Virus record (IMG/VR): IMGVR_UViG_2585427758_000010
Span: 1 to 14,744 of that record
Strand: one strand, 5' to 3'
Length of the DNA: 14,744 nucleotides
From: a virus
Lineage: Duplodnaviria > Heunggongvirae > Uroviricota > Caudoviricetes
The number at the start of each line of letters is the position of its first letter. Position 1 is the stretch's first letter. The notes beneath the pieces are model-generated. The model worked only from the letters and a program-made list of their open reading frames with translations. It did not search any database and was not told the origin of the DNA. Of this stretch, positions 1,031-14,744 are shown in pieces. The translations under genes and the position numbers were made by a program.

Positions 1031-1060
1031 ACAAATAAAAAAGCCTTCACTGCGGAAGGC
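1031..1060 (-). terminator. Candidate intrinsic terminator (minus strand)
   Basis: Read on the minus strand: GCCTTC-CGCAGT-GAAGGC hairpin (plus 1043-1060) followed immediately by TTTTTTATTTGT (plus 1031-1042). It overlaps the stop codon of the small ORF 1047..1244. Confidence 0.5.
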
Positions 1061-1244
1061 GTCTGTAACAACCGAACTGATAGTCTGCCAGACCCGCCAT
1101 AACCAGCTGAGTCAGTATTAACTGGCAGCGTTCGCGTGAAAGGTAAGTATTCTGCGCAATCTCCCCGACTGTCGCCGGTTCGGTGACGCTTAATTCATTA
1201 AACACCACTCTGGCGGTTTCTGTCATATCCTGCTGTTTTAGCAT
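1047..1244 (-). CDS. Hypothetical small protein (65 aa)
   Basis: ATG at 1242-1244 inside the longer track ORF 1047..1331, whose first codon is GTG. Product MLKQQDMTETARVVFNELSVTEPATVGEIAQNTYLSRERCQLILTQLVMAGLADYQFGCYRRLPQ. Upstream AAGGG is only a weak Shine-Dalgarno. No family recognised. Confidence 0.4.
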   Translation of the reverse strand: MLKQQDMTETARVVFNELSVTEPATVGEIAQNTYLSRERCQLILTQLVMAGLADYQFGCYRRLPQ

Positions 1245-1364
1245 GTCTTTTTCCCTTTTCCGGTTAACGTGACACACCAATAACTCTTGTCGAAAAAGCC
1301 AGCAAGCTGAAAGACAGGTATTCACCGCCACCAGCGCGTTTACTGTACTGACGCGATTTCAGTC

Positions 1365-1388
1365 ATAAAAAACCCGCCAGGCGGCGGG
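1365..1388 (-). terminator. Candidate intrinsic terminator about 80-105 nt downstream of the Q-like gene (tR'-like position)
   Basis: Minus-strand read: CCCGCC-GCCT-GGCGGG stem-loop (plus 1373-1388) followed by TTTTTTAT (plus 1365-1372). Confidence 0.5.
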
Positions 1389-1470
1389 GTGTAAAAAATC
1401 TTCTAACGTCAGGCATAAAACGCCTATCGTTAGAGCAAATTTACCACAGATTCGGGAAAAATCAACAACA

Positions 1471-2292
1471 CTATCGCGTTACCCTCTTTAACTGCCGCTC
1501 CGCCCATGCCTCTTCAATGTCAAACCGAACCACCAACGTATCGTAAAAGCGTTTCACTGATTTTTTCCACGTATCAAGCGTGATAGCACTCGTCACTTTG
1601 CGTATGGCATTAAATGCCTCCGTTGATGGTAGTCTTTCACAGCCACGACCACCACAACGCTGGCAGTCTCTGATAACAGGCATACCACGTTTTACCGACT
1701 CTTCACGATGAATGGCAACACCACGCCCACGGCAGTCTTTACAGGCAGTGGAAATCTCCCCCTTCCCTTTACATTCAGGACAAGAAACTTTCACCACCTC
1801 CCGAATTTTTTTCCATTCTTCCCAGTAAGACGGATACACACCTTTCGTACACTTTGCCCATACTGGCGGCTTGCCATCCGGATACTGAACCTTGTTTGTA
1901 AAAACTTCGCCTTCAATAAATTTTTCCCCTCGGCAACAGGGGCACTGCTTTTTACTCGCTGCGCTGCGGGCATAATCCTCAAAAGCGTACGAAGCCATAA
2001 TGCGCATCACTACCGGTTTTATTTCTGCCGGAAGTTTTCTCAACGCCGCCACACGATCGCACCGACTGAGTGCATAATCTGCCAGTAATTCTGTTGCCCG
2101 CGCCCTGTCATTCATACTGATGCCCATTTTCCCCAGGAACGCAGAAAACCCCATCTCAGCCCGATTCTGTGTCATGCCCTGCGCGGCCATCACATCAGTG
2201 ATACTCAGCGCATCTTTCGACGTTGAGGCCGATGCATCAGTCAGGCCGGGGGATTTTGGGGAGTAGTATTTCGGTAAATCTTCCAGTTTCAT
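1471..2292 (-). CDS. Late-gene antitermination protein, lambda Q family, with an expanded Cys-rich zinc-binding insert
   Basis: 273-aa ORF. N-terminal YSPKSP...DVMAAQGM and C-terminal ...LKRVTR resemble lambda Q as I recall it (SPKSP...DVMAA...LNAVTR). Central region carries CPCCRGEK, CPECKGKG, CKDCRGRG and CQRCGGRG, i.e. CxxCxGxG repeats. Start ATG overlaps the rusA stop as ATGA at 2289-2292. Confidence 0.8.
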   Translation of the reverse strand: MKLEDLPKYYSPKSPGLTDASASTSKDALSITDVMAAQGMTQNRAEMGFSAFLGKMGISMNDRARATELLADYALSRCDRVAALRKLPAEIKPVVMRIMASYAFEDYARSAASKKQCPCCRGEKFIEGEVFTNKVQYPDGKPPVWAKCTKGVYPSYWEEWKKIREVVKVSCPECKGKGEISTACKDCRGRGVAIHREESVKRGMPVIRDCQRCGGRGCERLPSTEAFNAIRKVTSAITLDTWKKSVKRFYDTLVVRFDIEEAWAERQLKRVTR

Positions 2293-2669
2293 TTTTTGAC
2301 CTGCTCTTCATGCATTATGGGGTAAATCTTCACCCCCAGACGTCCACCAGATACTGGCTGACCACGAACGATATTGATTTCATCAAACTGCTCATCGTCC
2401 ATTAGCAACCCCGCATGCGTCAGCGCATCCAGCGGCGCTTTCAGAATATTGTCCAGATCACGGCGGCGCTTATCCGGTGGTTCTGCAATAATTTTTATTG
2501 CCAACCTTCCGGACAGGCTTAATTTCAGCCGCTGCTGGCGAACAATAAGCGCCACTGCCCGGCGATAACGCTCCCCGGCTTTTGATACAAAATATGTGCT
2601 GCCACGACGACGCCAGTAAGTGTTCACCGTTGGCGGGTAAGGCAAAACAAATTCTATGCGTTCAGTCAT
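2289..2669 (-). CDS. rusA: Holliday junction resolvase RusA
   Basis: 126-aa ORF with the RusA hallmark acidic cluster ...PPDKRRRDLDNILKAPLDAL... and DDEQ, the right size for the family. Start abuts the stop of the upstream DUF968 gene (2667-2669 and 2670-2672). Confidence 0.9.
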   Translation of the reverse strand: MTERIEFVLPYPPTVNTYWRRRGSTYFVSKAGERYRRAVALIVRQQRLKLSLSGRLAIKIIAEPPDKRRRDLDNILKAPLDALTHAGLLMDDEQFDEINIVRGQPVSGGRLGVKIYPIMHEEQVKK

Positions 2670-3728
2670 TTATGCTTTCCACTTCAGAACACCCGAATTT
2701 CTCGCGTGCATTAAAAAACGAATCAGCAACAACAGCTGGCTGCCGTGTTTTTCTTCAAAATCTTTTACCCCGGCGTGTAGTTCGCTATGGCATTTACGGC
2801 ACAGCGGAATAACAAACAAATCATCAGCCTTTGTTCCCATCCCTCCCAGTCCATGACCAATGATGTGATGCGGATCATCTGCCTGATTGCCACACGTCAT
2901 GCATTTCTGCGTTTTTACCCAGCGCGTGTATACAGGCATCTCTTCCCGTTGTGATTTCTGGCGCTGGAGATACTGAGCCGGTGACTCGGGATCAACGGCA
3001 ATGCTGACCACCGTCTTTTCCTGTGGTGGGTTCTGTTGCTGGTGGGCGTGAGGCAGCGGCGCAAGATTTTTTGTGCGCTGTTTCAGTATGCTGGTGGCGG
3101 TCTGCTCTCCCGGTATGATGTCGCTTTCACTGTACACAGAGCGAATTTTTTCCGCACGCAACCCCAGCGAACGACGTAATACCGCTTCCGGTAGCGCGTC
3201 CGCCACCTGATTGCGGACCGCCCACCAGGATAATTCAGCCAGAGATAATTCACGCTCCTGCGTACCGCTTATTGCGTGACCGATGACGTCAATCATCCAT
3301 GCTGACAGGTTTTGATGAGCAAGTTGCCCGAGTGATTCGGATGTCTGGTCACGCAGCTGGTTGTCGCAGTGCCAGCACAACACCATTGCGCCGGTACCAT
3401 AACGGTGAATGACGGTTTCGCTGTGATGATAATCGCCGTGTGGCCACTGGCAGGATTTAATATGGCGCAACAGCCAGTCAGACAATGCACCAGCACCACC
3501 AGCAGCACGAATCACCCGTGCGTTACTGAAAAACGGCAGCAATGTTTTGTCTTCCACCAGCGGCTGGCGAGCGGCAGGAACGACCCCGGACGGCAGATTA
3601 CGCATGCTTTTTGGTTCCGGCTCCACCAGTATTCTGCCGTTATGGAATGCTGACATTGATTCACGGCCTGGCTTAACGATAACCAGACCGAGTTCCGGTA
3701 CCAGAACAGATCGAAGTAATACCCGCAC
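2670..3728 (-). CDS. DUF968 / YdfU-like prophage protein with a C-terminal HNH-type zinc-finger motif
   Basis: 352-aa ORF. C-terminal CMTCGN...DPHHIIGHGLGG...LCRKCHSELH is an HNH-like CxxC...HH...CxxC-H arrangement. Position immediately upstream of rusA and Q matches the lambdoid nin region. Confidence 0.8.
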   Translation of the reverse strand: MRVLLRSVLVPELGLVIVKPGRESMSAFHNGRILVEPEPKSMRNLPSGVVPAARQPLVEDKTLLPFFSNARVIRAAGGAGALSDWLLRHIKSCQWPHGDYHHSETVIHRYGTGAMVLCWHCDNQLRDQTSESLGQLAHQNLSAWMIDVIGHAISGTQERELSLAELSWWAVRNQVADALPEAVLRRSLGLRAEKIRSVYSESDIIPGEQTATSILKQRTKNLAPLPHAHQQQNPPQEKTVVSIAVDPESPAQYLQRQKSQREEMPVYTRWVKTQKCMTCGNQADDPHHIIGHGLGGMGTKADDLFVIPLCRKCHSELHAGVKDFEEKHGSQLLLLIRFLMHARNSGVLKWKA

Positions 3729-3729
3729 A

Positions 3730-4008
3730 TTACCTCCAGATCCGTTGCTGGAATGTGCGGGACGGACGCGCTGGCCGTTCTGAGTAAGGGAGCCTGACGG
3801 AGATTATCCAGTGACGGTAGTCGAGGCTAAGGGCTTTTTTAACCTCGCATCCGCGCCCGCGGTAACACTGAATGAGCCATTCAGCCTGTTCTTCGGTGCA
3901 GGGGTCGTGCTGATACCAGTCAGATTTGAATGCATGAGAACGCCGCCCGTGCCTGCTGGCAGGGGCGGCAGAGTTATCCGAATTGTAAAATTTGGTATCG
4001 TGCGCCAT
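3730..4008 (-). CDS. Hypothetical protein (92 aa); possibly the 3' remnant of a gene truncated by the adjacent AT-rich insertion
   Basis: ORF with phage-like GC content and a weak RBS. The frame stays open for 28 codons upstream of the ATG to a stop at 4096-4098, exactly where composition switches to AT-rich, with no alternative start. Confidence 0.45.
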   Translation of the reverse strand: MAHDTKFYNSDNSAAPASRHGRRSHAFKSDWYQHDPCTEEQAEWLIQCYRGRGCEVKKALSLDYRHWIISVRLPYSERPARPSRTFQQRIWR

Positions 4009-4275
4009 CTGTTTTCTCTGCTGGCGCAGCAGGTGCCAGTTGTTCAGGCTGACGTATGAAGTATAAATAAACTGGCTCCAGTGTAAAGCCCCACCTTAAT
4101 GGAATAAAAACCAAACAACAGATTGCTGGGATAAAAATACAACGCTTATTATTAAAAGCGGTTAGATAAATTAAATTTTAATGTTATGCAAATCTGCCAG
4201 ATTAGCATAATATTTCATTTGAAAACCGCTGAAATAACAATCTTATCGGGATTAATCATATTAAGGTGAGTAAAT

Positions 4276-4362
4276 ATGGAAAACAACAAATCTGCACATT
4301 ACGCTCCTTTTTTATCTGTAATACTTTTTGTATTTTGTTGTGTATGGGCGGTATTTTTATAA
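4276..4362 (+). CDS. Small hydrophobic peptide (28 aa), candidate membrane peptide
   Basis: AAGGTGAG Shine-Dalgarno 5 nt upstream of ATG 4276. Product MENNKSAHYAPFLSVILFVFCCVWAVFL is a polar N-terminus plus one predicted transmembrane helix. Stop TAA at 4360-4362 is followed by the hairpin at 4378-4407. Below the 60-aa threshold of the ORF track. Confidence 0.35.
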   Translation: MENNKSAHYAPFLSVILFVFCCVWAVFL

Positions 4363-4377
4363 AACACACCCACAAAT

Positions 4378-4407
4378 AAATCAAACCCGCTACAGCGGGT
4401 TTGATTT
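4378..4407. terminator. Bidirectional intrinsic terminator between convergent genes
   Basis: Perfect inverted repeat AAATCAAACCCGCT-AC-AGCGGGTTTGATTT with a GC core and T-rich flanks on both strands. It lies 16 nt after the small + ORF and 10 nt after the stop of the minus-strand protease gene. Confidence 0.6.
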
Positions 4408-4416
4408 ATATAGTTG

Positions 4417-6681
4417 TTATACGGAAACTGGCACACGAGCAGGCAATGGATAGTGAGCCCAGTTATTAGCATTTAAAGCTCTTACGCCATCAGCATAAAC
4501 TTGTGTGTTTCCATCTAATGATTTTAAAGTTACTACAATAGTTACAGGTAAAGGCTCCATTAAGGCCGGTTCATTCGCTCTCAACGTTGTTTTAGCTTGA
4601 AGAGCCCAGTTACCCGAAGTAATTCCTTTATTAAATGCCTTGCGATGAATTTTTACTGGTGACCACTTTCCACCATGCTCAATTTGAGCTCTCTCATATC
4701 CAGATTGACCGTTTTCTCCTTCCATAGGTACTTTTCCTTTTATAGTATTATTCTCAATTAAGCCAAAACTTAGCTCTACGTTCGCGCGAACATATTCACT
4801 GCCGGCATTAGGGTTCAGTGGTGGTGCATATGCAGCAGTAATTACAATCTCACCTTTAAATTTTCCATTTTGAATAAGTGCCGATGGTATGGGATAGTTT
4901 TCCTTTCTCCACCTCACCCCAGGAACCAAGAATGTTTGGAAAATCAGAGTAAACCTATCATCACTATCATATAAGGTCTCAATAACCTCATTAGGAATTC
5001 CCGCTCCCAAATAGCGTCTTTCACTTGGCGAGTAATCAGGAGAAGATAATTGAGCGGAATGAATTAATAATGCTTTAATCAATGATGGTGAAACATTAAA
5101 GTCTGAATTAGTGGCTATTCTCTGCCATGTATGCGCAGCTAAACTTGCCACAATTGGAGCAGCAAAACTAGTACCAAAATTAGAGCAAAGCCTATTATCT
5201 GGCCCTACGACCTTTAAACTGCTTGCTCCTACATTCCAAGGTCTATGAACCCCACCGCCAGCATGGATTATATCTGGCTTTGGAGTAAATACAGGCCCAG
5301 GGCCACGACGAGTATATGGTGTCGGTGTTCCAATTTCACTTAAAGCATCATTAGCTTCCATATGAGAAACTGAACCAACTGTTAGTGCTCGGACTGACTC
5401 TCCAGGAGAGGAAATTAAATCAGCACCTCCAAGCGGATCAGGATTTGGCCATGTACGTATAGGTTCATCTACATAATTACCTGCAGCAACTACAAACAAA
5501 ATACCAAATTTATCGCTGAGCCGATCTAACTCCATCGCAAAATCACTAAACATCTGCTCATTACATGGTCCGCCTCCCAAAGATAAATTCCAGACTTTTA
5601 TATCTGGTCTTTTATTTACAGCATCTGCTAGCCTCAGAATTAAATCTGATATATAAGATCCATTTTCATCTAAAGCACAAACATCATGGATTTTAGATTT
5701 TGTATCAGGAATCCATGGATGATTGTCATTTAAAAAATGAGCGCCTGATATCAATGAAGACACCATAGTCCCATGTTCATAACTCGTATCAGGAGGAATT
5801 ACGTATGTTTCCCTACTCACTACCCAAGGAGTAATTGTTGCCGCGATGGGGCTTACCCCAGTGTCAAATACAGCAACAATGGGTAATTCTTCTGATGGTA
5901 CGGGAAAGCTATTTGTTTCAATGCCAACAGAATCACTTACACTAACCGGGAATGCTGAATATTTTGGTTCTGGAATTAACGTTCTTATACCCGGGTAATC
6001 AATGAGAATGTCTAATATATATCTATCATTTGGGGATAAATCCATTATCCTTAATAAGGGAAGACCACATTTTGGTCTAATCTCATCATATTTAACTCCG
6101 TGTTGTTCTAATATAGAAATAACGTTTTCATAGTTGTTGTAAGTTGCATCTTCACCTGTGTACTCAAATAGTCGTACAAGGATGTTTGATGATTCAAACA
6201 AACCATCAGTGCCTCCTGGAACCTTCCTATTCTCATCCCAAGGTTCAATGCGCTCAATCGCGCTTAGGTTAGCCAAAATCGCTTTAATATTCCGATGTAA
6301 AATGACTGACTCTAATACGTCAAAACAGCCGGCATGAGCAGCAACCAACATTTCATCTATTTTGGCATGACCGGCATTTTGCAATCCAGCCTCTTGAGCA
6401 ATTTTGTTCGGCCTATGCGTTTTGGCTATTCCCTGGTCTCTTAATTTGAAAACCAAAGTACCCAAGCTTCCAGGGTACTCTGAAAGTTTGGATTCTAAAT
6501 AATGTTTACTGGTTGTTAAATTTCTTACTAGCCCTTGTCTATATTCGGCTGTTACATCAACCAATACCTTTGCCCCACCGCCAGCGTTTACTATTGCACC
6601 CAAGTCACTACTGGAAAAAGGGATTCTTAACATTGGGTTTGTAACTTTTGCGTTACTAAACTGTGTACCCCTTCTGCTCAT
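4417..6681 (-). CDS. Subtilisin-like serine protease (peptidase S8 family), IetS-like
   Basis: 754-aa ORF with the S8 catalytic motifs in canonical order: Asp in VAVFDTGV, His in HGTMVSSLISG, oxyanion Asn in VVAAGNY, Ser in GTSFAAP. About 270 aa precede and about 200 aa follow the catalytic domain. AGGAG lies 3 nt before the ATG. The 5' end overlaps the upstream ATPase gene by 26 bp. Confidence 0.9.
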   Translation of the reverse strand: MSRRGTQFSNAKVTNPMLRIPFSSSDLGAIVNAGGGAKVLVDVTAEYRQGLVRNLTTSKHYLESKLSEYPGSLGTLVFKLRDQGIAKTHRPNKIAQEAGLQNAGHAKIDEMLVAAHAGCFDVLESVILHRNIKAILANLSAIERIEPWDENRKVPGGTDGLFESSNILVRLFEYTGEDATYNNYENVISILEQHGVKYDEIRPKCGLPLLRIMDLSPNDRYILDILIDYPGIRTLIPEPKYSAFPVSVSDSVGIETNSFPVPSEELPIVAVFDTGVSPIAATITPWVVSRETYVIPPDTSYEHGTMVSSLISGAHFLNDNHPWIPDTKSKIHDVCALDENGSYISDLILRLADAVNKRPDIKVWNLSLGGGPCNEQMFSDFAMELDRLSDKFGILFVVAAGNYVDEPIRTWPNPDPLGGADLISSPGESVRALTVGSVSHMEANDALSEIGTPTPYTRRGPGPVFTPKPDIIHAGGGVHRPWNVGASSLKVVGPDNRLCSNFGTSFAAPIVASLAAHTWQRIATNSDFNVSPSLIKALLIHSAQLSSPDYSPSERRYLGAGIPNEVIETLYDSDDRFTLIFQTFLVPGVRWRKENYPIPSALIQNGKFKGEIVITAAYAPPLNPNAGSEYVRANVELSFGLIENNTIKGKVPMEGENGQSGYERAQIEHGGKWSPVKIHRKAFNKGITSGNWALQAKTTLRANEPALMEPLPVTIVVTLKSLDGNTQVYADGVRALNANNWAHYPLPARVPVSV

Positions 6682-7810
6682 ATGCTCCTGACTCCTTCAG
6701 AATGTTTGAAATTACTCTTGATGTAAGTTTGTACAAATTAGCAAGAACTCTGATAGAAAATAATTTTTTATCTTTAGAACGTAACCAACGAATTTCATCT
6801 TCGTAAGTGCTTAAATTTACACCTTCCATAAGCGATTGCGCAAGATACAAACGCCTATACAATTTATGGTGATTTATCACACTTGCACCTTCAATAACTG
6901 CATCCCTACGTGCATCCAAGCTCACCTGTTCAATTATTGCTCCGGATAATCCCTCCGATTTTCTTGATAAATCACTTAAATCTAGATCGCTACATATCAT
7001 ATTCTTTAAACGATTTTTCCAAATTAACTCTCTCTGATGTATGTCAGGCAGAGGCATTGGAATTCTGAAGCTAAATCGCCTCCAGATTGCAGGATCCAGA
7101 AGTTGCTCATGGTTAGTTGAGGCAATAATTACCGTATCCTCTGATGCCGCATCCATATTCTGCAATAGTGAAATGACAACTCGCTGAAGCTCACCTATAT
7201 CTCTCTCATTACCTCTTGCTCCAGCTAAAGCATCAAATTCGTCTAAAAAAAGCACTGATGGCCTCTGCATTACATAATCGAAAACCTGTCTAAGATTTTT
7301 GCTGGTTTGTCCCAATAAACTACTAATCAAAGTATCGCAACGCACTGTAAGAAGTGGAAAATCTAAGCGGGTAGCGATGTACTTAGATAACATAGTCTTA
7401 CCTGTTCCTGGCTTTCCATACACGAGCATACGACTCGGCAATGCTGCATCAGCTTTAACAAACTCATCATAACGTTGAACATTAGTGATAAACTCTTCAA
7501 CACGGGTACTGATTGCTGCAGGCAGAAAAATCTCTGAACTGTCTAATTTAGGATAACTGACATCAACAGTGTTGAGTCGACTATCAATATCTACCGGTAA
7601 TGAGCCCAGAGATATCCCACCTCCAGCCCTTTGAGCTCCTGCCAACGCCTGGGGAGCTCTAAGCAACCTTTCTCTTATCATTCTGGCTTGCTTGACCTCC
7701 CCTTTTTGTTCGAGCTTATCTGCCAGCAACCCAGCATAATTACTAGCCATCGAAGCATTTGCCTTTGTTGCACCTTCAATGATTTTTAACACTTCTGATA
7801 AATAATCCAT
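6656..7810 (-). CDS. AAA+ ATPase, IetA-like
   Basis: 384-aa ORF. Walker A GKPGTGKT, Walker B VLFLDEFD, sensor-1 and arginine-finger region ...IIASTNHEQLLDPAIWRRF, so classic-clade AAA with an N-terminal domain of about 125 aa. GGGAG RBS 6 nt before the ATG. AT-rich codon usage, unlike the flanking phage genes. Confidence 0.9.
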   Translation of the reverse strand: MDYLSEVLKIIEGATKANASMASNYAGLLADKLEQKGEVKQARMIRERLLRAPQALAGAQRAGGGISLGSLPVDIDSRLNTVDVSYPKLDSSEIFLPAAISTRVEEFITNVQRYDEFVKADAALPSRMLVYGKPGTGKTMLSKYIATRLDFPLLTVRCDTLISSLLGQTSKNLRQVFDYVMQRPSVLFLDEFDALAGARGNERDIGELQRVVISLLQNMDAASEDTVIIASTNHEQLLDPAIWRRFSFRIPMPLPDIHQRELIWKNRLKNMICSDLDLSDLSRKSEGLSGAIIEQVSLDARRDAVIEGASVINHHKLYRRLYLAQSLMEGVNLSTYEDEIRWLRSKDKKLFSIRVLANLYKLTSRVISNILKESGAYEQKGYTV

Positions 7811-8003
7811 TCAACACTCCCACAACAAAAAGCCACAGCAATCAAAAAATGAGCACACAGAATCAAAATACTCTCTAATCGTAACGCATTTTGAGATTTT
7901 TGATACGTTTTTTTGGGATTATGTAACGCCAAATGGTCATTTTGTGTCAGAAAAATAAATCTTAGTACCGAGAATATGTAGCTTCCATCCTTCATCGTTC
8001 TAT

Positions 8004-8435
8004 TCATCCCTGATCTCCAAGCCTCTCTCGAAAACCATTCTGATAAAACGCCAGCACACGCTGCATAACTTCGCTCTTCCGGCACTCGCGACAGATTATG
8101 TTCAGACGCCTGTCGTAGCGGCGTATTTCTCCGTCTGGTAATGACCAGATAAGGTCCGGATCAACCACAGATGGTTTCTTCACCTTTGCCCTGGATAGTT
8201 TTTTGCGGGCATTTTGCCAGTCCTTACGAGCCTGTTCAGACGGGAATAACCCGTAACCAGAGTTGTATACATCGCCACTGGCAACCAGCTCTCTGGCGAG
8301 AACGCTCATCAGATATCTTGTCGCACCTGTCTTGGCTTCCAGTTGCCGTAACGTCTCGCGCCCACTCCGGCGTACTAGCTCAACAACCTGCCCTTTAATT
8401 TTTTCCCGCTCTTCTTGTGTAAATACTTTTGCCAT
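8004..8435 (-). CDS. Hypothetical prophage protein (143 aa)
   Basis: ATG at 8433-8435 preceded by GGAGG at 5-nt spacing; the track ORF 8004..8450 begins at an upstream TTG. Product MAKVFTQEEREKIKGQVVELVRR... with a CRECRK motif. No family assigned. Confidence 0.7.
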   Translation of the reverse strand: MAKVFTQEEREKIKGQVVELVRRSGRETLRQLEAKTGATRYLMSVLARELVASGDVYNSGYGLFPSEQARKDWQNARKKLSRAKVKKPSVVDPDLIWSLPDGEIRRYDRRLNIICRECRKSEVMQRVLAFYQNGFRERLGDQG

Positions 8436-8450
8436 AAGCGCCTCCGGCAA

Positions 8451-9212
8451 TCACTTTTCCGATACAACACGGCGGGAAGAATCAGTAATCTGTCGAACAA
8501 TATCCCGGTGCTTGTTCAGCTCCCGCAGCGCGGCGCAGACTCGCTCCCACTTCTGGACATGATTTTTCGCCCGACGCAGTTCGCGGTTTGCCATATGCAG
8601 TGATGGTAAAACCAGGTCATCCGCTCGCGTTTCAGTAAACGATGGCAGCGACTGCACAATGTCCGCCACAGTTTCTGTTTTAATATCTTCCTGTGTTGCA
8701 GCCTCCTGTACTGGTAACGCAACACCTGCGGTATGAGGAAAGGCCTTACCATCAGTTTCCGCTACCGATGCTGCTTTCGGCTCTGCTGGTAAATTATCGC
8801 CCGGTATGCAGTAACGAAATTTACCGCCCTGATTTACGCGAATCAGACGACCTTTGCTGATTGCCATTGCCAGCGTTGAAGCCACTTTGCGTGATGTGGT
8901 ACCAAACAATGTAGCCAGCTCATCAGCCATTTGTGGTCCTCGTTGTTCAATCGTCGCGGTTAAATCGCACTCTGAGATTTTCGCTACTGTTGCTGTGGTG
9001 ATTTCTTCCGGCAGTTCTGCCTGCGCTGGCTGTTCCTGCTGAACGTTGTTATCAGCCACACGCCAGGTGTACGCGCTTTTATCAACAAAACCAGCCTTTT
9101 TCAGTTCCCATAGTTCGTTCAGCACTTCTTCACGACTGATATCAAGTCGCGCAGCAAGTTCTATGGATGTGGCTTTTCCCATTGCTTTCAGTGCGTCAAA
9201 AACAGTCTCCAT
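8451..9212 (-). CDS. Hypothetical protein with an N-terminal winged-helix-like segment (253 aa; alternative start at 9263 gives 270 aa)
   Basis: ORF with [43 protein letters not shown]... at the N-terminus. GGGAG lies 9 nt upstream of ATG 9210-9212. The in-frame ATG at 9263 would overlap the DnaC-like gene by 29 nt. Confidence 0.65.
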
Positions 9213-9234
9213 TAAATTTTTCTCCCGGTAAAAA

Positions 9235-9981
9235 TTACTTCGCAATTCCTGGCTGGACGACATTCGGACGCCAGCTCTCCCAGTTAAAATTCACCCATAG
9301 CCCGCCGTTCATGGTCATGCGATCCATAATCCGCTCGCCGAGCAATGTTTTCATGGCCTCATAGTTCAGGTTTGTCAGCATCCCCACGCTGCGCATCGAC
9401 GCTGTCCGGCGATCAACAATCTGGTGCAGTACCACCTGCTCGTTTTTCGTCTCGCGCTGAATGCCAATTTCATCAAGAACCAGCAGATCCACTTCGCACA
9501 GTTCCCGCAAAAATTTTTCGCCTGACTGCCCATCGTCATAGCTGGCGTGGAGGGCACTCATAACATCAGCCACGGTAACCACAATCACTGTCTGACCGTC
9601 TTTCAGCAGGCGATTCCCGATAGCTGCTGCTAAGTGGTTCTTCCCGGTACCAGGTTTTCCGCTAAACGCGAAATTTGTGCATCCGGTCATCAGTTCATCA
9701 GCGATAGATTTCGCCTGGCTCAACGCGTATCGCTGACCGTCGTTCTGCACCTGGTAATTCGCAAACGAGCATTTACGGTGCAACGGCTGGATGCCTGAGC
9801 GATTCAGAATTTTTTCCACCCGCAACTGGCGATTCAGGCGGTTGATCTCCTCGCTACGTTTCTGGCCTTCAGCAAGTTGCCACTCGTGCCACTCCGCTAC
9901 CGTTCTGAATGGGGCGGTTACATGTGGCGGAGCCAGTCTTCGGATACGTTCAAGAACGCCGCCTGCCGCAATGTTTTTCAT
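9235..9981 (-). CDS. DnaC-like replicative helicase loader (IstB/DnaC ATPase family), lambda P analogue
   Basis: 248-aa ORF with Walker [16 protein letters not shown], Walker B LLVLDEIG, and size and position typical of prophage DnaC homologues such as Rac YdaV. Confidence 0.9.
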
Positions 9982-9987
9982 GACACG

Positions 9988-10950
9988 TCACCCCCTGAAT
10001 CCCGGCGGTATTTCAGTGTCCGGTTCAGAAATGTGATTCACGCAACGCTGCGCAGGCAAACGCCCCAGGCGGATAACCAGTTCATCCCATTTTTCCCGGA
10101 GTTTTGCCGGACTCATGATGTTTTTTACCCAGAACGAATCCCGCTGGAGACGCCCAAACATTTCACAAATTTGTCTGTGAGTTCTGCCATCCAGCATCCG
10201 CATTGTGCGAACGTCATTGGCCCATGCTGTCCAGTTGGGTTCTTTCGGTCTAGTGATCTCGCCATCATAGCTGGCCGCCTGCTCGTAAAGACTCACGATT
10301 CGTCCCCAGATCCACTGTGCGCACACCAAATCTTCCTGACTTCCCCACTGGCGTTTTTTCGCACTGAACACAACCGCGTCAGGGTGTCGGGTTAAAAAAT
10401 CCTGTTCAGCCGTCTGCGGGTCCGGTTGCGAAGCGTCCGGACAAGAAGATCTTTTATCTGACGGATCAGGTTTTAATACTGACGGATCGGGGTCAATCAT
10501 CGGCCCCCTAATCGGCAGTTTTTTATCAACAGTTGATCCATCAAAATTTGACGGGTCAACCGTTGAGGGGTCAATATTTGACGGGTCAACTGTTAACGGG
10601 TCATTTTTTGCCGGGCTAATTTTTCTTTTCGGTTTATATGACTCACGCGCCGCCGCCGCAGCTGCTTCGAGTTTTTCCACATTAAGCCGATAGATATTGC
10701 TTACATTACGCCCACCGACCTTACGCTCTTCCTTCGTCAGCCAGCCCTCTTTCGCCAGTTCTGCAATAGCCGATTTCACTGTGGATTCACTTCTTGCACC
10801 GATCTGACGCCGGATAGTTTCAATGGCAGGCCATGACACGCCCTCGTCATTGCTGTAGTCTGCAAGACGGGCCATAACCGCCACCCTGGATAAGATCATG
10901 CCGGTGAAGGCGCACCCTTCCCAGACAAGACCATGAAGCTTGCTGCTCAT
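9988..10950 (-). CDS. Replication initiator / replisome organiser (lambda O-like or YdaU-like), containing the putative origin
   Basis: N-terminal winged-helix-like segment (...WPAIETIRRQIGARSESTVKSAIAELAKEGWL...), a central repeat-encoded linker (DPLTVDPSNIDPSTVDPSNFDGSTVD) and a C-terminal domain. ATG at 10948-10950 is preceded by a G-rich RBS; the track ORF starts at an upstream GTG (10965). Confidence 0.8.
   Translation of the reverse strand: MSSKLHGLVWEGCAFTGMILSRVAVMARLADYSNDEGVSWPAIETIRRQIGARSESTVKSAIAELAKEGWLTKEERKVGGRNVSNIYRLNVEKLEAAAAAARESYKPKRKISPAKNDPLTVDPSNIDPSTVDPSNFDGSTVDKKLPIRGPMIDPDPSVLKPDPSDKRSSCPDASQPDPQTAEQDFLTRHPDAVVFSAKKRQWGSQEDLVCAQWIWGRIVSLYEQAASYDGEITRPKEPNWTAWANDVRTMRMLDGRTHRQICEMFGRLQRDSFWVKNIMSPAKLREKWDELVIRLGRLPAQRCVNHISEPDTEIPPGFRG
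10527..10643. repeat. Iteron-like array plus adjacent AT-rich tract: putative phage origin of replication inside the initiator gene
   Basis: Five tandem units of about 15 bp, each a TTGA-N4-TCAA dyad: agTTGAtccaTCAAaa, atTTGAcgggTCAAc, cgTTGAggggTCAAt, atTTGAcgggTCAAc, tgTTAAcgggTCATt. The 15-mer ATTTGACGGGTCAAC is identical at 10546-10560 and 10576-10590. Followed by TTTTTTGCCGGGCTAATTTTTCTTTTCGGTTTATAT. Lambda ori has the same layout inside gene O. Confidence 0.5.
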
Positions 10951-10972
10951 AAACCCCCCGAACACCGTGCTT

Positions 10973-11398
10973 TTAGTGCATCACCACAGCATTCCCTGCC
11001 GGGCCGCCGCGATTCATCTGGTCATACAAAACAACCGCTGACGCAACAAAATCATCGACATCCTTCACCAGCCGATCCCTCCGTTCGACGATCTCACGGT
11101 AATATTCAGAACTGTGGCTGCGCATACGGGCCACCAGCAAAGGCGGCATCGCCTTTTCGATCGCCGGTAACAGAGCCTGCATTTTTTCAACAGCATCAGG
11201 GGTGTCTTTATCCAGCCAACGGAAAATTTTCTGGGTATTACGGGCCAGGGCTTCCGGATGGCTGTCGTCATACAGTTCCGGGAACGTCATTCCCAGCTCG
11301 AAATACGCTTTGGTAATTTTCGCAGCCGGCACTTTTTCGCCGTCCGGATGCGCCCAGACATTCATCGCCATGCGGATGTGTTCATGCTTGATTTTCAT
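10973..11398 (-). CDS. YdaT-like protein (cII-position gene of Rac-type immunity regions)
   Basis: 141-aa ORF directly downstream of the Cro-like gene, with AGGAG 9 nt before the ATG. N-terminus MKIKHEHI... Assigned by synteny with the Rac racR/ydaS/ydaT arrangement. Confidence 0.7.
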   Translation of the reverse strand: MKIKHEHIRMAMNVWAHPDGEKVPAAKITKAYFELGMTFPELYDDSHPEALARNTQKIFRWLDKDTPDAVEKMQALLPAIEKAMPPLLVARMRSHSSEYYREIVERRDRLVKDVDDFVASAVVLYDQMNRGGPAGNAVVMH

Positions 11399-11663
11399 GA
11401 ATCAAGCTCCTAGAAAGTGGTTGTGTTAACGTTTTGGTATCTTCCAGCTCGGGCCAAATATTCATCCAATCAAAAGGCCTTAGTTGCTGACGTGTAACTT
11501 CACCATTACTGGCTCGCTCAATAAGGACACATAACGATGCCCCTAACACTTGACCTTTACTCAATGCCTTTCTTAGATAACCGATGCTGGTACCACACTC
11601 GCATGCAAACATACGCTGTTCATCTGACGAAAGAGAATTGAGAAATATTCTTAATTCTTCCAT
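11382..11663 (-). CDS. Cro-like HTH protein of the YdaS family, first gene of the PR-like operon
   Basis: 93-aa ORF with a perfect AAGGAG SD 5 nt before the ATG. HTH region ...CGTSIGYLRKALSKGQ... and the motif LIERASNGEVTRQQLRPFDW that I associate with YdaS-type proteins. Divergent from the repressor gene. Confidence 0.8.
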   Translation of the reverse strand: MEELRIFLNSLSSDEQRMFACECGTSIGYLRKALSKGQVLGASLCVLIERASNGEVTRQQLRPFDWMNIWPELEDTKTLTQPLSRSLIHENQA

Positions 11664-11689
11664 AGCTACTCCTTAGTAAACACAGCAAA

Positions 11690-11735
11690 GAATACCCACA
11701 GGTAAACAAAAGTCAATACCCACAGGTTGTTTACC
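11690..11735. promoter_or_regulatory. OR-like operator/promoter region between divergent Cro-like and repressor genes
   Basis: Direct repeat AATACCCACAGGT at 11690-11702 and 11714-11726, each holding the dyad-ended 12-mer TACCCACAGGTA, plus inverted GGTAAACAA / TTGTTTACC. On the minus strand a TTGACT -35 and a TATTCT -10 at 16-nt spacing overlap these repeats. On the plus strand TATTAT lies 6 nt before the repressor ATG with no SD. Confidence 0.5.
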
Positions 11736-11763
11736 TTGCGGTAATCGCATCTATTATTTACCT

Positions 11764-12183
11764 ATGGACAAATATGAATTTAGACGACAGCAACTCATCA
11801 AAATTCGTGATGAGAAATGCGATGGTAAAGCGGTTAACGTGGCCAGAAAGATCGGGCGCGAGCCTTCTTATGTATCAAGAATGTTGTACCCAGAGGGGAA
11901 AAAGGGAAAAAAACGGATCGCTGATGATATGGTGGAGATTATCGAAGAGTCCTTTGGGTTACCCCGGGGATGGATGGATGGTATCGTTTCATCATCAACG
12001 AACACAGCCTCCAGTTATGAAACAAGGGTTCTAACGCCACGACAACGTATTTTTTTAGATCTCTTAGACGAACTGCCAGAAAGTGAAGCGGATAAATTAT
12101 TAAAAACTCTTGAAGAGAAAAAACAGTATTACAATATGATCTACGAAGAAATCCGTAAAAAGAAAGCACAAAACGCATCATAG
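11764..12183 (+). CDS. Prophage repressor, RacR/DicA-like (cI analogue, XRE-type HTH)
   Basis: 139-aa ORF with HTH ...KAVNVARKIGREPSYVSRML... and a C-terminal LDELPESEADKLLKTLEE segment reminiscent of DicA-type repressors. Divergent from the Cro-like gene, and no SD before the ATG. Confidence 0.8.
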   Translation: MDKYEFRRQQLIKIRDEKCDGKAVNVARKIGREPSYVSRMLYPEGKKGKKRIADDMVEIIEESFGLPRGWMDGIVSSSTNTASSYETRVLTPRQRIFLDLLDELPESEADKLLKTLEEKKQYYNMIYEEIRKKKAQNAS

Positions 12184-12225
12184 CTCACCAAACAACTAGT
12201 CACCAGTTAAGACACCGCAAAAATT

Positions 12226-12262
12226 TACCCATGGGTATTTACTTTTTAAATACCTATGGGTA
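12226..12262. promoter_or_regulatory. OL-like operator pair and probable PL-like promoter
   Basis: Perfect palindrome TACCCATGGGTA at 12226-12237 and near-copy TACCTATGGGTA at 12251-12262. Together they form a 35-bp near-perfect inverted repeat ACCCATGGGTATTTA-CTTTT-TAAATACCTATGGGT. Same TACC...GGTA core as the OR repeats. Possible -35 TTTACC and -10 TAAATA at 17-nt spacing. Confidence 0.45.
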
Positions 12263-12448
12263 TCCTTCTTTTCATACCAACCCACCCCGCCCCACAGAAT
12301 GCAGGGCAATACTTCGAGTTACCAGGCAGTGGTCAGGGGTTAAGTAGCCAGCCCGAGGCGTAAGAACATGACGGCAGGGTTCAACTTTAATAACTATGCA
12401 GCAGGTTTTTGTTCCGCTACCCCGGCGTTAAGGGGAAATGAGGTCAAC

Positions 12449-12601
12449 ATGGATATGCTCAATCTTGGCAACAACGAATCTCTGGTATGTGGCGTGTTCC
12501 CCAACCAGGACGGCACGTTTACCGCGATGACGTATACCAGAAGCAAAACGTTTAAAACTGAAGCTGGCGCGCGTCGCTGGTTAACCAGAAACACTGACTG
12601 A
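12449..12601 (+). CDS. Small protein (50 aa), YdfA/YdaF-like by position
   Basis: ATG 12449 preceded by GAGGT at 4-nt spacing. Product MDMLNLGNNESLVCGVFPNQDGTFTAMTYTRSKTFKTEAGARRWLTRNTD. It is the first gene after the repressor, as ydfA is in Qin and ydaF in Rac. The longer track ORF from 12368 has no RBS. Confidence 0.55.
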   Translation: MDMLNLGNNESLVCGVFPNQDGTFTAMTYTRSKTFKTEAGARRWLTRNTD

Positions 12602-12612
12602 TGAGGTTGACG

Positions 12613-13014
12613 ATGGAATTTAAAGATTTACCAGTACCATTCCAGGAAATGGCATCGAATGTGGTTCGCTCTCAACTGGCGACTCTTGACCTGAGTACCG
12701 TAGAAAAAGAAACCATCGATACTATATCCGGTAACGTGCGTCGTGCCTTTATAGGTCTGTATGAAGAGAAGCGCCTATTCGGCGGACAGAATTCGCCTGA
12801 AAACAAGAATCAAGCAAATGATGAGAAGCTGAAACACATTATCGCCTTACTTTTGGAAGACGCAAAACGTCTACAGCAACTGGAACCAAATGCAGGCACA
12901 GAGGCCCGCATTTGGATTGCCATGAAATCACTCAAATGTGAAAGCAGTGATTATTTCAAAACAACAATTAAAACTACTCAACTTTCGGGAGAGCTACTGA
13001 AGAAATTGCCATAA
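12613..13014 (+). CDS. Hypothetical protein (133 aa), no recognisable domain
   Basis: ATG 12613 preceded by GAGG at 6-nt spacing; the ATG at 12601 overlaps the upstream stop and lacks an SD. Lys/Glu-rich, AT-richer than neighbours. Its 3' end overlaps the convergent minus-strand gene by 41 bp. Confidence 0.55.
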   Translation: MEFKDLPVPFQEMASNVVRSQLATLDLSTVEKETIDTISGNVRRAFIGLYEEKRLFGGQNSPENKNQANDEKLKHIIALLLEDAKRLQQLEPNAGTEARIWIAMKSLKCESSDYFKTTIKTTQLSGELLKKLP

Positions 13015-13252
13015 GAGCATGGTCTTTCTCTTGTTCTGCAAGATGAGCATTAATACCTGGTATGGTTTTTTCAAATTTATCTATCTGTTGAATAACAACT
13101 TCGCGGTATACGTTTGTTTTTGTACCACCAAGCGCAGCCGTTAATGCAGAAAGCATATTTAGTATCATATCAGTGCGATATGAAAGAATCCTGATAGCTT
13201 CATCTTGTTTTTCAATAATAGATTGCAGGGCCTCAATTTGCTTTTTATCCAT
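12974..13252 (-). CDS. Hypothetical protein (92 aa), probably coiled-coil, convergent with the 133-aa gene
   Basis: Strong AGGAGG SD 6 nt upstream of ATG 13250-13252. Product MDKKQIEALQSIIEKQDEAIRILSYRTDMILNMLSALTAALGG.... The longer track ORF to 13291 starts at a non-RBS Met. Confidence 0.55.
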   Translation of the reverse strand: MDKKQIEALQSIIEKQDEAIRILSYRTDMILNMLSALTAALGGTKTNVYREVVIQQIDKFEKTIPGINAHLAEQEKDHALMAISSVALPKVE

Positions 13253-13584
13253 TTCACCCTCCTGAGGGTTGGTAATTAAGGAGTTCTCCACGGGTCAGGT
13301 GGAGTGCGTGCGCCGGACACGGGTGAACATCCGGCACTGACAGTTTACTGAAAGGATATGTCCCTGAAAAGTCAGGGCATAACGCGAAAGCGCACGGCGA
13401 AATTGGTCTCTCTGTACGGTGTCGTTAAATTTAGTTCGACCGTGCGCTTCCGGTTGTGGCAATCCGCGAAATGGTGCGGCGGTAAGTATGGCGGGGTTAT
13501 TCCTTCCCCCGTTGAGGACACCGGGTTGTCAGGTTGACCATACGCTTAAGTGACAACCCCGCTGCAACGCCCTCTGTTATCAAT

Positions 13585-13642
13585 TTTCTGGTGACGTTTG
13601 GCGGTATCAGTTTTACTCCGTGACTGCTCTGCCGCCCTTTTT
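13585..13642 (+). ncRNA. dicF: DicF small regulatory RNA (Hfq-dependent sRNA of the dicB operon)
   Basis: TTTCTGGTGACGTTTGGCGGTATCAGTTTTACTCCGTGACTGCTCTGCCGCCCTTTTT matches my recollection of the 53-nt DicF RNA and ends in a GC-rich element plus T5. It sits about 170 nt upstream of dicB, the position it has in Qin. Identity is from memory, not a search. Confidence 0.6.
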
Positions 13643-13811
13643 AAAGTGAATTTTGTGATGTGGTGAATGCGGCTGAGCGCACGCGGAACAGTTAAAACCA
13701 AAAACAGTGTTATGGGTGGATTCTCTGTATCCGGCGTTAATTGTTAACTGGTTAACGTCACCTGGAGGCACCAGGCACCGCATCACAAAATTCATTGTTG
13801 AGGACGCGATA

Positions 13812-14000
13812 ATGGAAACGTTATTACCAAACGTTAATACGTCTGAAGGTTGTTTTGAAATTGGTGTCACTATCAGTAACCCAGTATTTACTGAAGATGC
13901 CATTAACAAGAGAAAACACGAACGGGAGCTATTAAATAAAATATGCATTCTTTCAATGCTGGCCCGTTTACGTCCGATACAAAAAGGATGCTGGCAATGA
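13812..14000 (+). CDS. dicB: Cell division inhibitor DicB
   Basis: 62-aa product METLLPNVNTSEGCFEIGVTISNPVFTEDAINKRKHERELLNKICILSMLARLRPIQKGCWQ closely matches the DicB sequence I recall. GAGGA RBS upstream. Stop overlaps the ydfD start as ATGA. The track ORF 13707..14000 is an N-terminally extended version. Confidence 0.85.
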   Translation: METLLPNVNTSEGCFEIGVTISNPVFTEDAINKRKHERELLNKICILSMLARLRPIQKGCWQ

Positions 14001-14188
14001 ATACAGCATTTGCACTTGTTCTGACAGTTTTTCTTGTTTCCGGAGAGCCAGTTGATATTGCAGTCAGTGTTCACAGGACAATGCAGGAGTGTGTGACTGC
14101 AGCAACCGAACAGAAAATTCCCGGTAACTGTTACCCGGTCGATAAAGTTATTCACCAGGATAATAACGAAATCCCGGCAGGTCTTTAA
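13997..14188 (+). CDS. ydfD: YdfD (Qin-type small lysis-associated protein)
   Basis: 63-aa product MNTAFALVLTVFLVSGEPVDIAVSVHRTMQECVTAATEQKIPGNCYPVDKVIHQDNNEIPAGL with a hydrophobic N-terminus. Translationally coupled to dicB. Matches my recollection of YdfD. Confidence 0.75.
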   Translation: MNTAFALVLTVFLVSGEPVDIAVSVHRTMQECVTAATEQKIPGNCYPVDKVIHQDNNEIPAGL

Positions 14189-14280
14189 AACAGTTCCGTA
14201 ATAAATATCCGGTTTCATTCTTATATGCCAGCAATGGCAGGGATTTGTTCACCCTTAAATCTGTAATGAGGTAAAACAAA

Positions 14281-14462
14281 ATGAGTAAAGTCTTTATTTG
14301 CGCCGCCATTCCGGACGAACAGGCAATAAAGGAAGAAGGTGCCGTCGCTGTAGCCACTGCCATTGAAGCCGGTGATGAACGTCGCGCCCGCGCAAAATTT
14401 CACTGGCAATTCCTGGAACATTATCCGGCTGCTCAGGACTGCGCTTATAAATTTCTTGTCTG
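14281..14462 (+). pseudogene. ydfE-like gene truncated by IS1 insertion
   Basis: GAGGT RBS then MSKVFICAAIPDEQAIKEEGAVAVATAIEAGDERRARAKFHWQFLEHYPAAQDCAYKFLV. The last seven residues and stop of the track ORF (WVMTPTY*) are encoded by the IS1 terminal repeat, so the native reading frame is interrupted at 14462/14463. Confidence 0.6.
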
Positions 14463-14744
14463 GGTAATGACTCCAACTTATTGATAGTGTTTTATGTTCA
14501 GATAATGCCCGATGACTTTGTCATGCAGCTCCACCGATTTTGAGAACGACAGCGACTTCCGTCCCAGCCGTGCCAGGTGCTGCCTCAGATTCAGGTTATG
14601 CCGCTCAATTCGCTGCGTATATCGCTTGCTGATTACGTGCAGCTTTCCCTTCAGGCGGGATTCATACAGCGGCCAGCCATCCGTCATCCATATCACCACG
14701 TCAAAGGGTGACAGCAGGCTCATAAGACGCCCCAGCGTCGCCAT
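14463..14744 (-). mobile_element. IS1 insertion sequence, partial (insB-proximal end; rest beyond window)
   Basis: Terminal inverted repeat GGTAATGACTCCAACTTATTGATAGTG begins at 14463, followed by sequence encoding the InsB C-terminus on the minus strand. Confidence 0.9.
14478..14744 (-). CDS. insB: IS1 transposase InsB, C-terminal 88 codons (5' part beyond the window end)
   Basis: Translation [88 protein letters not shown] is the C-terminal portion of IS1 InsB as I recall it. Stop TAA at 14478-14480 lies inside the IS1 terminal repeat. Confidence 0.9.

Follow-up and report, generated by a model that had tools for sequence, protein, structure and literature searches.

Two convergent, overlapping genes of a Rac/Qin-type prophage: an apparently fused early-left gene and a backward gene in a variable slot beside dicF

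Positions 1 to 14,744 of the IMG/VR virus record IMGVR_UViG_2585427758_000010 (Caudoviricetes), here called the window (14,744 nt), hold the immunity region together with the early-left region of a lambdoid Escherichia coli prophage of the Rac/Qin type. Between a ydfA-like gene, the first of the early-left operon, and the small RNA (sRNA) DicF lie two genes of 133 and 92 aa, located on the plus and the minus strand, respectively, which run towards each other and overlap tail to tail by 41 bp. Both genes are real and uncharacterised. The plus-strand gene starts with the ATG at 12613, a start that is supported by its homologues, has a GAGG 7 nt upstream and ends with the stop codon at 13012-13014, and the minus-strand gene starts with the ATG at 13252, 5 nt behind an AGGAGG (13263-13258), and ends with the stop codon at 12974-12976. 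The pair, as described in an earlier note made from the sequence alone, is confirmed, since the open reading frames (ORFs), the ribosome binding sites (RBSs) and the coding sequences (CDSs) called by the Prokaryotic Genome Annotation Pipeline (PGAP) all agree; the same two CDSs stand in RefSeq as 'hypothetical protein' on chromosomes that are 99.5-100% identical over 12300-13700, including that of enteropathogenic E. coli (EPEC) E2348/69. The note also placed the pair correctly, downstream of a DUF1391/ydfA gene (recognised by Pfam) and upstream of DicF (Rfam) and then dicB, and 12449, given there as the left end, is where the ydfA-like gene begins and not the pair. Neither protein has an assignable motif, as had been stated: Pfam, NCBIfam and PADLOC gave nothing above threshold and no match to a named family for the 133-aa or the 92-aa protein, PHROGs returned only families of unknown function, and the accession numbers of the two, WP_001339605.1 and WP_000358771.1, are not mentioned in the literature. 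The two genes are separate things that abut, and they are not an obvious functional pair.

Judged by its profile matches, alignments and an AlphaFold2 model, the 133-aa gene is an in-frame fusion composed of a module A, a linker, the core of a module B and a tail. PHROG profiles matched the protein in two separate pieces, residues 1-62 (phrog_6937, phrog_2151 and phrog_9419) and residues 69-117 (phrog_30817, phrog_12693, phrog_32391 and phrog_2982), with profile position 2 of the second piece aligned to residue 69. A profile search with module B returned 238 proteins across the Enterobacterales, mostly stand-alone proteins of 44-50 aa, whose hosts include Citrobacter, Enterobacter, Klebsiella, Cronobacter, Hafnia, Erwinia, Yersinia and Sodalis. 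The start methionine of the stand-alone proteins (MNETELKHVIALLLEDAKRLQQLEPNAGTEARIWIA...) aligns to residue 68, where MNETELKH corresponds to ANDEKLKH in the 133-aa protein. These proteins (~47 aa), which are encoded in prophages, are 50-69% identical to residues 68-108 and their genes take the same position in the operon, directly after the DUF1391 gene or the repressor, but the version in the 133-aa gene has lost its own start codon (ANDEK for MNETE), is fused to module A and continues into a read-through tail. Several proteins, in turn, begin with module A and continue into C-termini that are unrelated, among them a 135-aa protein of the PPompW phages and a 121-aa protein of phage mEp460. 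For the N-terminal 50 codons, the ratio of non-synonymous to synonymous divergence (dN/dS) is ~0.30 in comparison with the PPompW version, and for module B dN is 0.18 with saturated synonymous sites in comparison with Salmonella. In the AlphaFold2 model, which was based on a 30-sequence alignment, module A is predicted to form a hairpin of helices 8-23 and 32-54 (predicted local distance difference test score, pLDDT, 80-84), followed by a disordered linker (56-65), a second hairpin made up of helices 65-90 and 96-108 in module B (pLDDT ~70) and a disordered tail (109-133, pLDDT 35-41). The best E-values of a sequence-profile search of the PDB with module B were 0.3-0.4, which we judged to be chance. 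The most conserved codons of module B (EPNAGTEARIW) also contain a perfect 8-bp inverted repeat, CCAAATGC...GCATTTGG (12886-12915), in which the single change seen in Salmonella pairs only as G.U on the minus strand, despite the saturation of synonymous sites.

We take the 133-aa gene for an ordinary gene of the early-left operon, which is of the dicBF type and probably controlled by the repressor. In the Qin prophage of K-12, the corresponding promoter-proximal stretch, from ydfA to the dicF leader, is likewise occupied by genes for small proteins of no assigned function, ydfB and ydfC, which the earlier note had regarded as the equivalent cargo. Qin does have ydfB/ydfC at this position, but they are not alternatives to the pair, because strains 214-4 and 28Eco12, like 15 of the 55 IMG/VR loci, have the order ydfA-ydfB-ydfC-133-aa gene, with the 92-aa gene facing the last of these from downstream; the pair has there been added to ydfB/ydfC, not swapped for them. 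Moreover, BLASTP of the 133-aa protein against YdfB, YdfC and YdaG gave only E-values >4, and a relationship to YdfB/YdfC was therefore rejected.

A possible mode of control of this operon is suggested by the region upstream of ydfA. The best promoter-like site there is flanked by the palindromes TACCCATGGGTA (12226-12237) and TACCTATGGGTA (12251-12262), and a third copy, TACCCACAGGTA (11693-11704), overlaps the -10 element of the Cro-side promoter in the cro/repressor intergenic region; the pattern has three matches against 0.38 expected, a resemblance at the level of the consensus only. The palindromes look like operators of the 139-aa repressor, and the site looks like an operator-controlled analogue of PL. 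A terminator scan flagged 12226-12262 as a palindrome with a 16-bp stem. We rejected a simple terminator, because the palindrome shares sequence with the best promoter candidate and because its half-sites are met again at the cro/repressor promoter. Operators are thus likelier, be it instead of a terminator or in addition to one. The homologous operon of K-12 is expressed as one polycistronic transcript from dicBp under repression by DicA, is processed by RNases III and E and has no internal promoter on the plus strand (PMC10448788).

At the point where the two genes meet, the substitution pattern indicates that the sequence is governed by the minus-strand gene. Between E. coli and Salmonella, the substitutions in the overlap are non-synonymous in seven of seven cases when read in the plus frame, and three are synonymous and three non-synonymous in the minus frame; where the tail lies outside the overlap, it is under almost no constraint (dN 0.91) and has an indel of 5 codons. 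DNA identity to Salmonella is 73% in the module B core, 54% in the tail outside the overlap (12935-12973), 85% in the overlap and 77% both in the rest of the 92-aa gene and in the proximal leader, and the profile is therefore that of two conserved blocks meeting at a divergent junction. Separate histories of the 92-aa gene and module B are suggested, too, by the proportion of synonymous differences to Salmonella (pS), which is much lower in the former (0.47 vs 0.87). Exactly the same 41-bp overlap was found in 54 of the 55 IMG/VR loci, in Salmonella and in locus L010, where the plus-strand gene encodes an unrelated 214-aa helix-turn-helix (HTH) protein whose last ~20 codons resemble the Salmonella tail. 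The simplest explanation would be a mobile unit that extends slightly past the stop codon of the 92-aa gene, so that any plus-strand ORF abutting it reads to the same stop. The overlap is probably an incidental by-product of an insert abutting a plus-strand ORF, with no functional coupling, and should not count as evidence of coupling. Antisense regulation, which the convergent overlap had been thought to allow, is permitted by the sequence but would not be confined to the 41 bp: since the homologous K-12 operon is a single transcript (PMC10448788), the whole 92-aa gene would lie antisense within a polycistronic early-left transcript.

The same comparisons bear on the possibility that the genes do form a functional pair, in which the 92-aa protein and the module B/tail portion act as toxin and antitoxin, effector and immunity protein, or defence and self-immunity, and in which the overlap couples their RNAs. 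We consider this quite unlikely. The linkage of the two with a 41-bp overlap in 54 of 55 IMG/VR loci would be in line with a pair, but it reflects recent common descent, because the IMG/VR copies of the 92-aa gene are 94-100% identical. It also speaks for a pair that module B and a 93-aa gene are kept with the same overlap in Salmonella (62% and 72% amino acid identity, respectively), and that C-terminal modules and backward genes change together when this prophage is compared with PPompW or with mEp460. Against this stand the distant relatives of the 92-aa gene in loci L011-L014, which lack module B, the partnership with an unrelated HTH gene in L010, and the wide distribution of module B as a 47-aa gene without a backward neighbour, most module B genes being without the 92-aa gene; the tail, moreover, is predicted to be disordered and shows almost no constraint. 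From the layout of the repressor region, the two convergent genes would be expected to be active at different times. A toxin/antitoxin-type function, which the earlier note had proposed as one possibility, finds no support: the genes are convergent and not co-directional as in type II systems, neither product has the hydrophobic segment of a type I toxin, no toxin/antitoxin family was matched (the best NCBIfam hit, RelB-like, reached 15.9 bits against a cut-off of 50), and the partners are not conserved across the family. Convergent type I loci overlapping at their 3′ ends, txpA/RatA and bsrG/SR4, are known from prophages of Bacillus subtilis. They resemble the present arrangement as tail-to-tail overlapping units in a prophage that permit antisense control of the RNase III type, but here both genes are protein-coding, neither product is a small hydrophobic peptide and the partner is not conserved.

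Purifying selection on the 92-aa gene is clear from its divergence from the Salmonella orthologue (locus L007, 72% amino acid identity), for which dN is 0.18, dS 0.74 and dN/dS 0.245. When 1.84 billion representative proteins were searched exhaustively with a HMMER profile, the family comprised 12 representatives, none of them annotated, four of which are full-length (90-93 aa, 33-44% identity) with conserved residues throughout. Among 5426 complete E. coli genomes the gene is present in 127, always on the chromosome, and 121 of these 127 copies are at least 99% identical and intact; the surrounding region is found, in parts, in 4441. A tblastn search of 50,697 deposited phage genomes and a scan of one genome per species gave no match to the 92-aa protein. 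The GC content at 12900-13200 is 36-37% vs 49-55% on both sides, that is, ~13-15 points lower. It is hard to credit that either ORF, or both, should be an artefact of annotation or a decaying remnant without function, even if neither has an annotation beyond 'hypothetical', truncated or frameshifted versions of the 92-aa protein are present in some database clusters and the prophage is damaged by an IS1 insertion downstream: modules A and B and the 92-aa gene are under purifying selection, full-length homologues exist at a distance, the RBSs are good and nearly all E. coli copies are intact.

For the 92-aa gene, the predicted product is a soluble protein of three helices. It is acidic (pI 5.7), its highest Kyte-Doolittle mean over 19 residues is 0.93 compared with 2.19 for SieB, no transmembrane segment is present, and AlphaFold2 placed helices at residues 3-42, 46-63 and 69-85 (pLDDT 68; predicted template modelling score, pTM, 0.39). 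A HMMER search of PDB sequences with the 92-aa family gave best E-values of 0.3-0.4, judged to be chance, and Foldseek of both AlphaFold2 models, which are of modest confidence, against the PDB and BFVD gave no E-value <0.3, with none better than ~0.4 for the 92-aa protein, and only generic helical bundles. Remote-homology searches and structure predictions, the checks that had been proposed for both proteins, thus produced no match to a housekeeping-type phage protein, the results from the PDB, Foldseek, PHROGs and Pfam being uninformative.

For most relatives of the 92-aa gene, the repressor/cro switch is no more than ~1 kb away. Beside a repressor, and antisense to the early-left direction, lie the Salmonella orthologue and the relatives in L010, L013 and L014; those in L013 and L014 are convergent with a LexA-type CI repressor, without an overlap and without module B, and the relative in L011/L012 adjoins an integrase. 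This proximity could mean that the 92-aa protein is no exclusion or defence factor but a regulator of the lysis-lysogeny switch of its own prophage, acting, e.g., on the repressor, an antirepressor or the toxicity of the early operon, and small, soluble, helical proteins acting on repressors do exist in the system, as Rem acts on DicA (PMC10448788). Such a role is unlikely in our judgement: the relative at the integrase is far from any called repressor, the gene is dispensable, most prophages with the same switch being without it (present in 127 of 5426 genomes vs 4441 with parts of the region), and it is found together with repressors of several types, which speaks against a partner specific to one repressor.

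The stretch between the start of the 92-aa gene and DicF (13253-13585) contains a putative promoter and leader for the backward gene. TTTTCA (13370-13365) and TAAACT (13347-13342), separated by a 17-nt spacer, form the top minus-strand promoter candidate of this interval, and are followed by hairpin 1 (13337-13310), hairpin 2 (13304-13286) and the Shine-Dalgarno (SD) sequence AGGAGG (13263-13258). A -10-like hexamer ~90 nt before the ATG is also present in PPompW, in Salmonella (TGnTAAGCT) and in L010 (TGnTATTAT). The minus-strand leader RNA folds with -33.9 kcal/mol (z = -2.65), compared with z = -0.18 for the plus strand, which lacks both hairpins. Among eight leaders, a small sample compared on a structure derived from this prophage's own sequence, 94% of the cells were paired and three pairs were compensatory, with many G.U pairs that are valid only on the minus strand. 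The Cappable-seq supplement for the homologous K-12 leader has no transcription start site entry near the predicted position.

Comparison with other prophages indicates that the interval between the module B gene (or a gene of the module A type) and the leader of the dicF/kilS sRNA is a slot that has repeatedly been filled by unrelated, backward-facing genes. In Rac of K-12, sieB overlaps the DUF1391 gene ydaF by 4 bp; the PPompW phages have a backward gene of 77 aa overlapping the plus-strand gene by 23 bp, and the corresponding genes of phage mEp460 (66 aa), locus L018 (59 aa) and the Salmonella locus L020 (112 aa) overlap it by 32, 11 and 63 bp, respectively. Two backward genes without an overlap are found in L024, and L027 combines a 97-aa gene with SieB (PF14163), the overlap with the plus-strand gene being 30 bp. 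These cargo proteins are mutually unrelated, each is in a PHROG of its own with unknown function or in none, and none is in PADLOC; for the 77-, 66-, 59- and 112-aa proteins, searches of Pfam, PHROGs and PADLOC found no function. The flanks of the slot, but not the 92-aa gene, are also present in K-12 Qin, phage Tritos and PPompW, and in L015-L017 module B is only 47 aa long with no backward gene behind it. The earlier view that this slot changes cargo between prophages, with an oppositely oriented sieB in Rac, was therefore borne out, and it generalises. A literature search on KilS, Rac and sieB gave nothing relevant, and the presence of variable, non-conserved genes beside dicF was already mentioned, but not analysed, in earlier work (PMC5069750, Fig. 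9 legend). In Salmonella enterica GCA_034662075.1 (L008, 5011-6413), two genes located between the repressor and the module B/93-aa cassette, a few hundred bases from the latter, match the PADLOC candidate PDC-M63 (A, 5e-42; B, 8e-41; DUF6932), so that the same short region also takes candidate defence cargo.

The 59-, 66- and 112-aa cargo genes, as well as the L014 relative, are preceded by a second class of leader, with an extended -10 element (TGnTATxCT) ~35 nt before the start (L018 3533-3640, L020 3586-3700, L022 2738-2850 and L014 200-306, on the strand of the backward gene). It contains the interleaved repeats GCCTG...ACCAC...CAGGC...GTGGT, which could form alternative hairpins or an H-type pseudoknot, and the region upstream of sieB in Rac is a variant of it.

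SieB, known from Rac and also from lambda and P22 (PF14163, phrog_6399), is expressed from the repressed prophage. The 92-aa gene shares with it the slot, the orientation and the Rac/Qin-type early-left operon; as in the present locus, sieB of Rac lies tail to tail with a DUF1391 or module B gene and its start abuts the conserved sRNA leader of the kil region, and the slot of L027 contains a further small backward gene next to sieB. The proteins themselves differ, SieB being a basic membrane protein of 162 aa and the 92-aa protein being acidic and, by prediction, soluble. In searches for a relationship, the 92-aa protein had no Pfam match, only phrog_18692 among the PHROGs and no BLASTP similarity to SieB, whereas SieB of Rac, used as a control, hit phrog_6399 at 5e-70. 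Homology to SieB and a membrane location were rejected, given the absence of similarity and the maximum hydropathy of 0.93 vs 2.19. Because the protein is predicted to be soluble and without a transmembrane segment, any exclusion mechanism would differ from that of SieB. Another comparison is with the morons of lambdoid phages, a concept of Juhala and Hendrix, which the 92-aa gene resembles in its presence/absence polymorphism between homologous prophages, its low GC content and a candidate promoter of its own, but from which it differs in that it lies antisense inside an operon and not between co-directional genes, has no detected terminator of its own and shares a conserved structured leader with unrelated cargo genes. 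Taken together, the low GC content, the promoter-like element, the location of most relatives near the immunity region and the sieB position mark the 92-aa gene, as far as sequence can tell, as a lysogen-expressed accessory gene.

On this basis we lean, if not strongly, towards a reading in which the 133-aa gene is a fused early-left gene and the 92-aa gene a lysogen-expressed, backward moron in the sieB slot, which is shut off by convergent transcription at induction and may serve exclusion or defence, the overlap being incidental. In the lysogen, the repressor would sit on the operators at 12226-12262 and, by occupying them, keep the early-left operon including the 133-aa gene off, while the 92-aa gene would be transcribed from its own weak promoter (~13370-13342) through the two-hairpin leader and translated from a strong SD sequence. 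Upon induction, early-left transcription would pass antisense through the entire cargo gene, and collision and double-stranded RNA would silence it. As a soluble cytoplasmic protein, the 92-aa product would act by binding another protein, of the host or of a phage, to the benefit of the lysogen. Exclusion or abortion of other phages would be the most plausible benefit, because of the slot, the immunity-region context of the relatives and the PDC-M63 genes near the cassette in L008; a role in exclusion or defence is plausible by position. The 133-aa gene would have arisen by fusion of two small helical-hairpin early genes, its last ~25 codons being disordered read-through into the insert.

Several observations weigh against this reading. 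The exclusion or defence role is argued from position, with no match in PADLOC, Pfam or NCBIfam; there is no structural match either, and the AlphaFold2 model of the 92-aa protein is of low confidence (pLDDT 68, pTM 0.39). Within E. coli the two genes are always together (54 of 55 loci), and the 41-bp overlap recurs in three lineages, which could be taken to favour coupling. The minus-strand promoter candidate matches the consensus at only 8 of 12 positions, and no terminator-like site was found on the minus strand within 11600-14300. Finally, the leader hairpins and the -10-like TAAACT are kept in K-12 Qin (L003, ~2560-2650) and in Tritos (L004, ~3200-3290), where no backward gene is present, and the hairpins may therefore serve another purpose; in these two they may be the remnant of a lost cargo gene, or belong to an unannotated antisense RNA opposite ydfC. 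The conservation of promoter-like element and minus-strand structure without an ORF and the lack of a terminator-like site downstream of the 92-aa gene would also be expected if the backward transcription and not the protein mattered, with a constitutive antisense RNA over the 133-aa gene, ydfA and the early-left promoter holding the toxic dicBF operon in check in the lysogen; induction of that operon in K-12 is indeed highly toxic (PMC5069750). We regard such a brake as very unlikely, in view of the clear protein-level selection on the 92-aa ORF (dN/dS 0.245, with full-length relatives at 33-44% identity), its near-consensus SD sequence and the fact that the unrelated cargo of the slot also consists of intact ORFs with PHROG families of their own. 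The lysogen-expressed moron that we prefer could be taken further: the 92-aa family would then be an undescribed, soluble, cytoplasmic phage-exclusion or abortive-infection protein, encoded by a plug-in cassette of promoter, two-hairpin leader and ORF that Rac/Qin-type prophages exchange at the slot, with the antisense embedding providing self-immunity by turning the cargo off upon induction of the prophage itself and the other slot genes, half a dozen and unrelated, representing a reservoir of single-gene lysogen-protective functions. This extension is speculative and, in its entirety, rather improbable.

Table 1. Position, strand and basis of the features discussed for the window.
Feature	Position	Strand	Basis	Remark
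YdaT-like gene	10973-11398	-		Faces the 139-aa repressor gene
Cro/YdaS-like gene	11382-11663	-		Faces the 139-aa repressor gene
139-aa repressor gene	11764-12183	+	phrog_5736	C-terminus DicA-like
PL-like (dicBp-like) promoter candidate	12226-12266	+	Position weight matrix scan	TTTACT (12238-12243), 17-nt spacer, TATCCT (12261-12266)
ydfA-like DUF1391 gene	12449-12601	+	Pfam PF07151, E = 1.4e-28; RefSeq DUF1391 family protein	
133-aa gene, WP_001339605.1	12613-13014	+	ORF, RBS, PGAP CDS	
Module A, residues 1-55	12613-12777	+	PHROG matches, alignments, AlphaFold2	Predicted helical hairpin
Module B core, residues 68-108	12814-12936	+	PHROG profiles, 238 homologues	
C-terminal tail, residues 109-133	12937-13011	+		Predicted disordered, poorly conserved; last 13 codons inside the 92-aa gene
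Tail-to-tail overlap of both coding regions	12974-13014	both	ORF list and PGAP	41 bp
92-aa gene, WP_000358771.1, phrog_18692	13252-12974	-	ORF, AGGAGG RBS, PGAP CDS	
Promoter candidate and structured 5′ leader before the 92-aa gene	13253-13370	-	Promoter scan, folding, covariation	
Untranslated dicF leader	13253-13585	+	Alignment with K-12 Qin, phage Tritos and PPompW	333 nt, conserved
DicF sRNA	13586-13637	+	Rfam RF00039, 76.7 bits vs gathering score 48	
dicB	13812-14000	+		Followed by the DUF1482/ydfD gene

The surroundings of the pair (Table 1) have the dicBF order of the Qin type on one strand, with the DUF1391 gene first, then DicF, dicB and DUF1482. The ydfA-like gene, the first of the early-left operon, is context and lies outside the pair, and the dicF leader together with DicF forms the conserved right-hand border of the cargo slot. 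The 139-aa repressor is unlike DicA apart from its C-terminus. ORFs within the untranslated dicF leader (as at L023 2765-2968 and 3103-3258) are called hypothetical genes in some phage records, e.g., those of vB_EcoS-640R1 and mEp460, and the equivalent here is a 55-aa ORF at 13295-13462 on the minus strand; the 67-aa 'gene' of phage 640R1 and the ORF at 13295-13462 were rejected as cargo genes, as they lie inside the conserved untranslated leader and are probably spurious. In the interval between DicF and dicB, a match to the Rfam family STnc100 (RF02076) was seen at 13649-13789 on the plus strand (38.4 bits, E = 2e-6), below the gathering score of 47. Behind the ydfD-like gene, a recE-like exonuclease ORF (region 14281-14744) is interrupted after ~61 codons by the end of an IS1 element, with the terminal repeat GGTAATGACTCC from 14463 and an InsB-like ORF at 14478-14744 on the minus strand. 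This copy of the prophage is therefore damaged; the region of strain WP7-S17-ESBL-04 is otherwise identical and undamaged.

Morons, sieB and variable genes next to dicF are already familiar. What is new is modest and consists of the domain anatomy of the 133-aa protein, the very small uncharacterised family of the 92-aa protein and the pattern of a slot with a shared leader. The annotation of the 133-aa protein is clarified as a fusion of two common early-gene modules, and the pair is present in well-studied pathogens, EPEC E2348/69 and strains of enterotoxigenic E. coli (ETEC). If the favoured reading is true, its value lies in the slot pattern more than in this one gene pair: Rac/Qin-type prophages, which are found in most E. 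coli genomes, would keep a defined slot of which sieB is the sole characterised occupant, and this slot would provide a simple rule for finding candidate lysogen-expressed functions, with genes short enough for single-gene tests against panels of phages.

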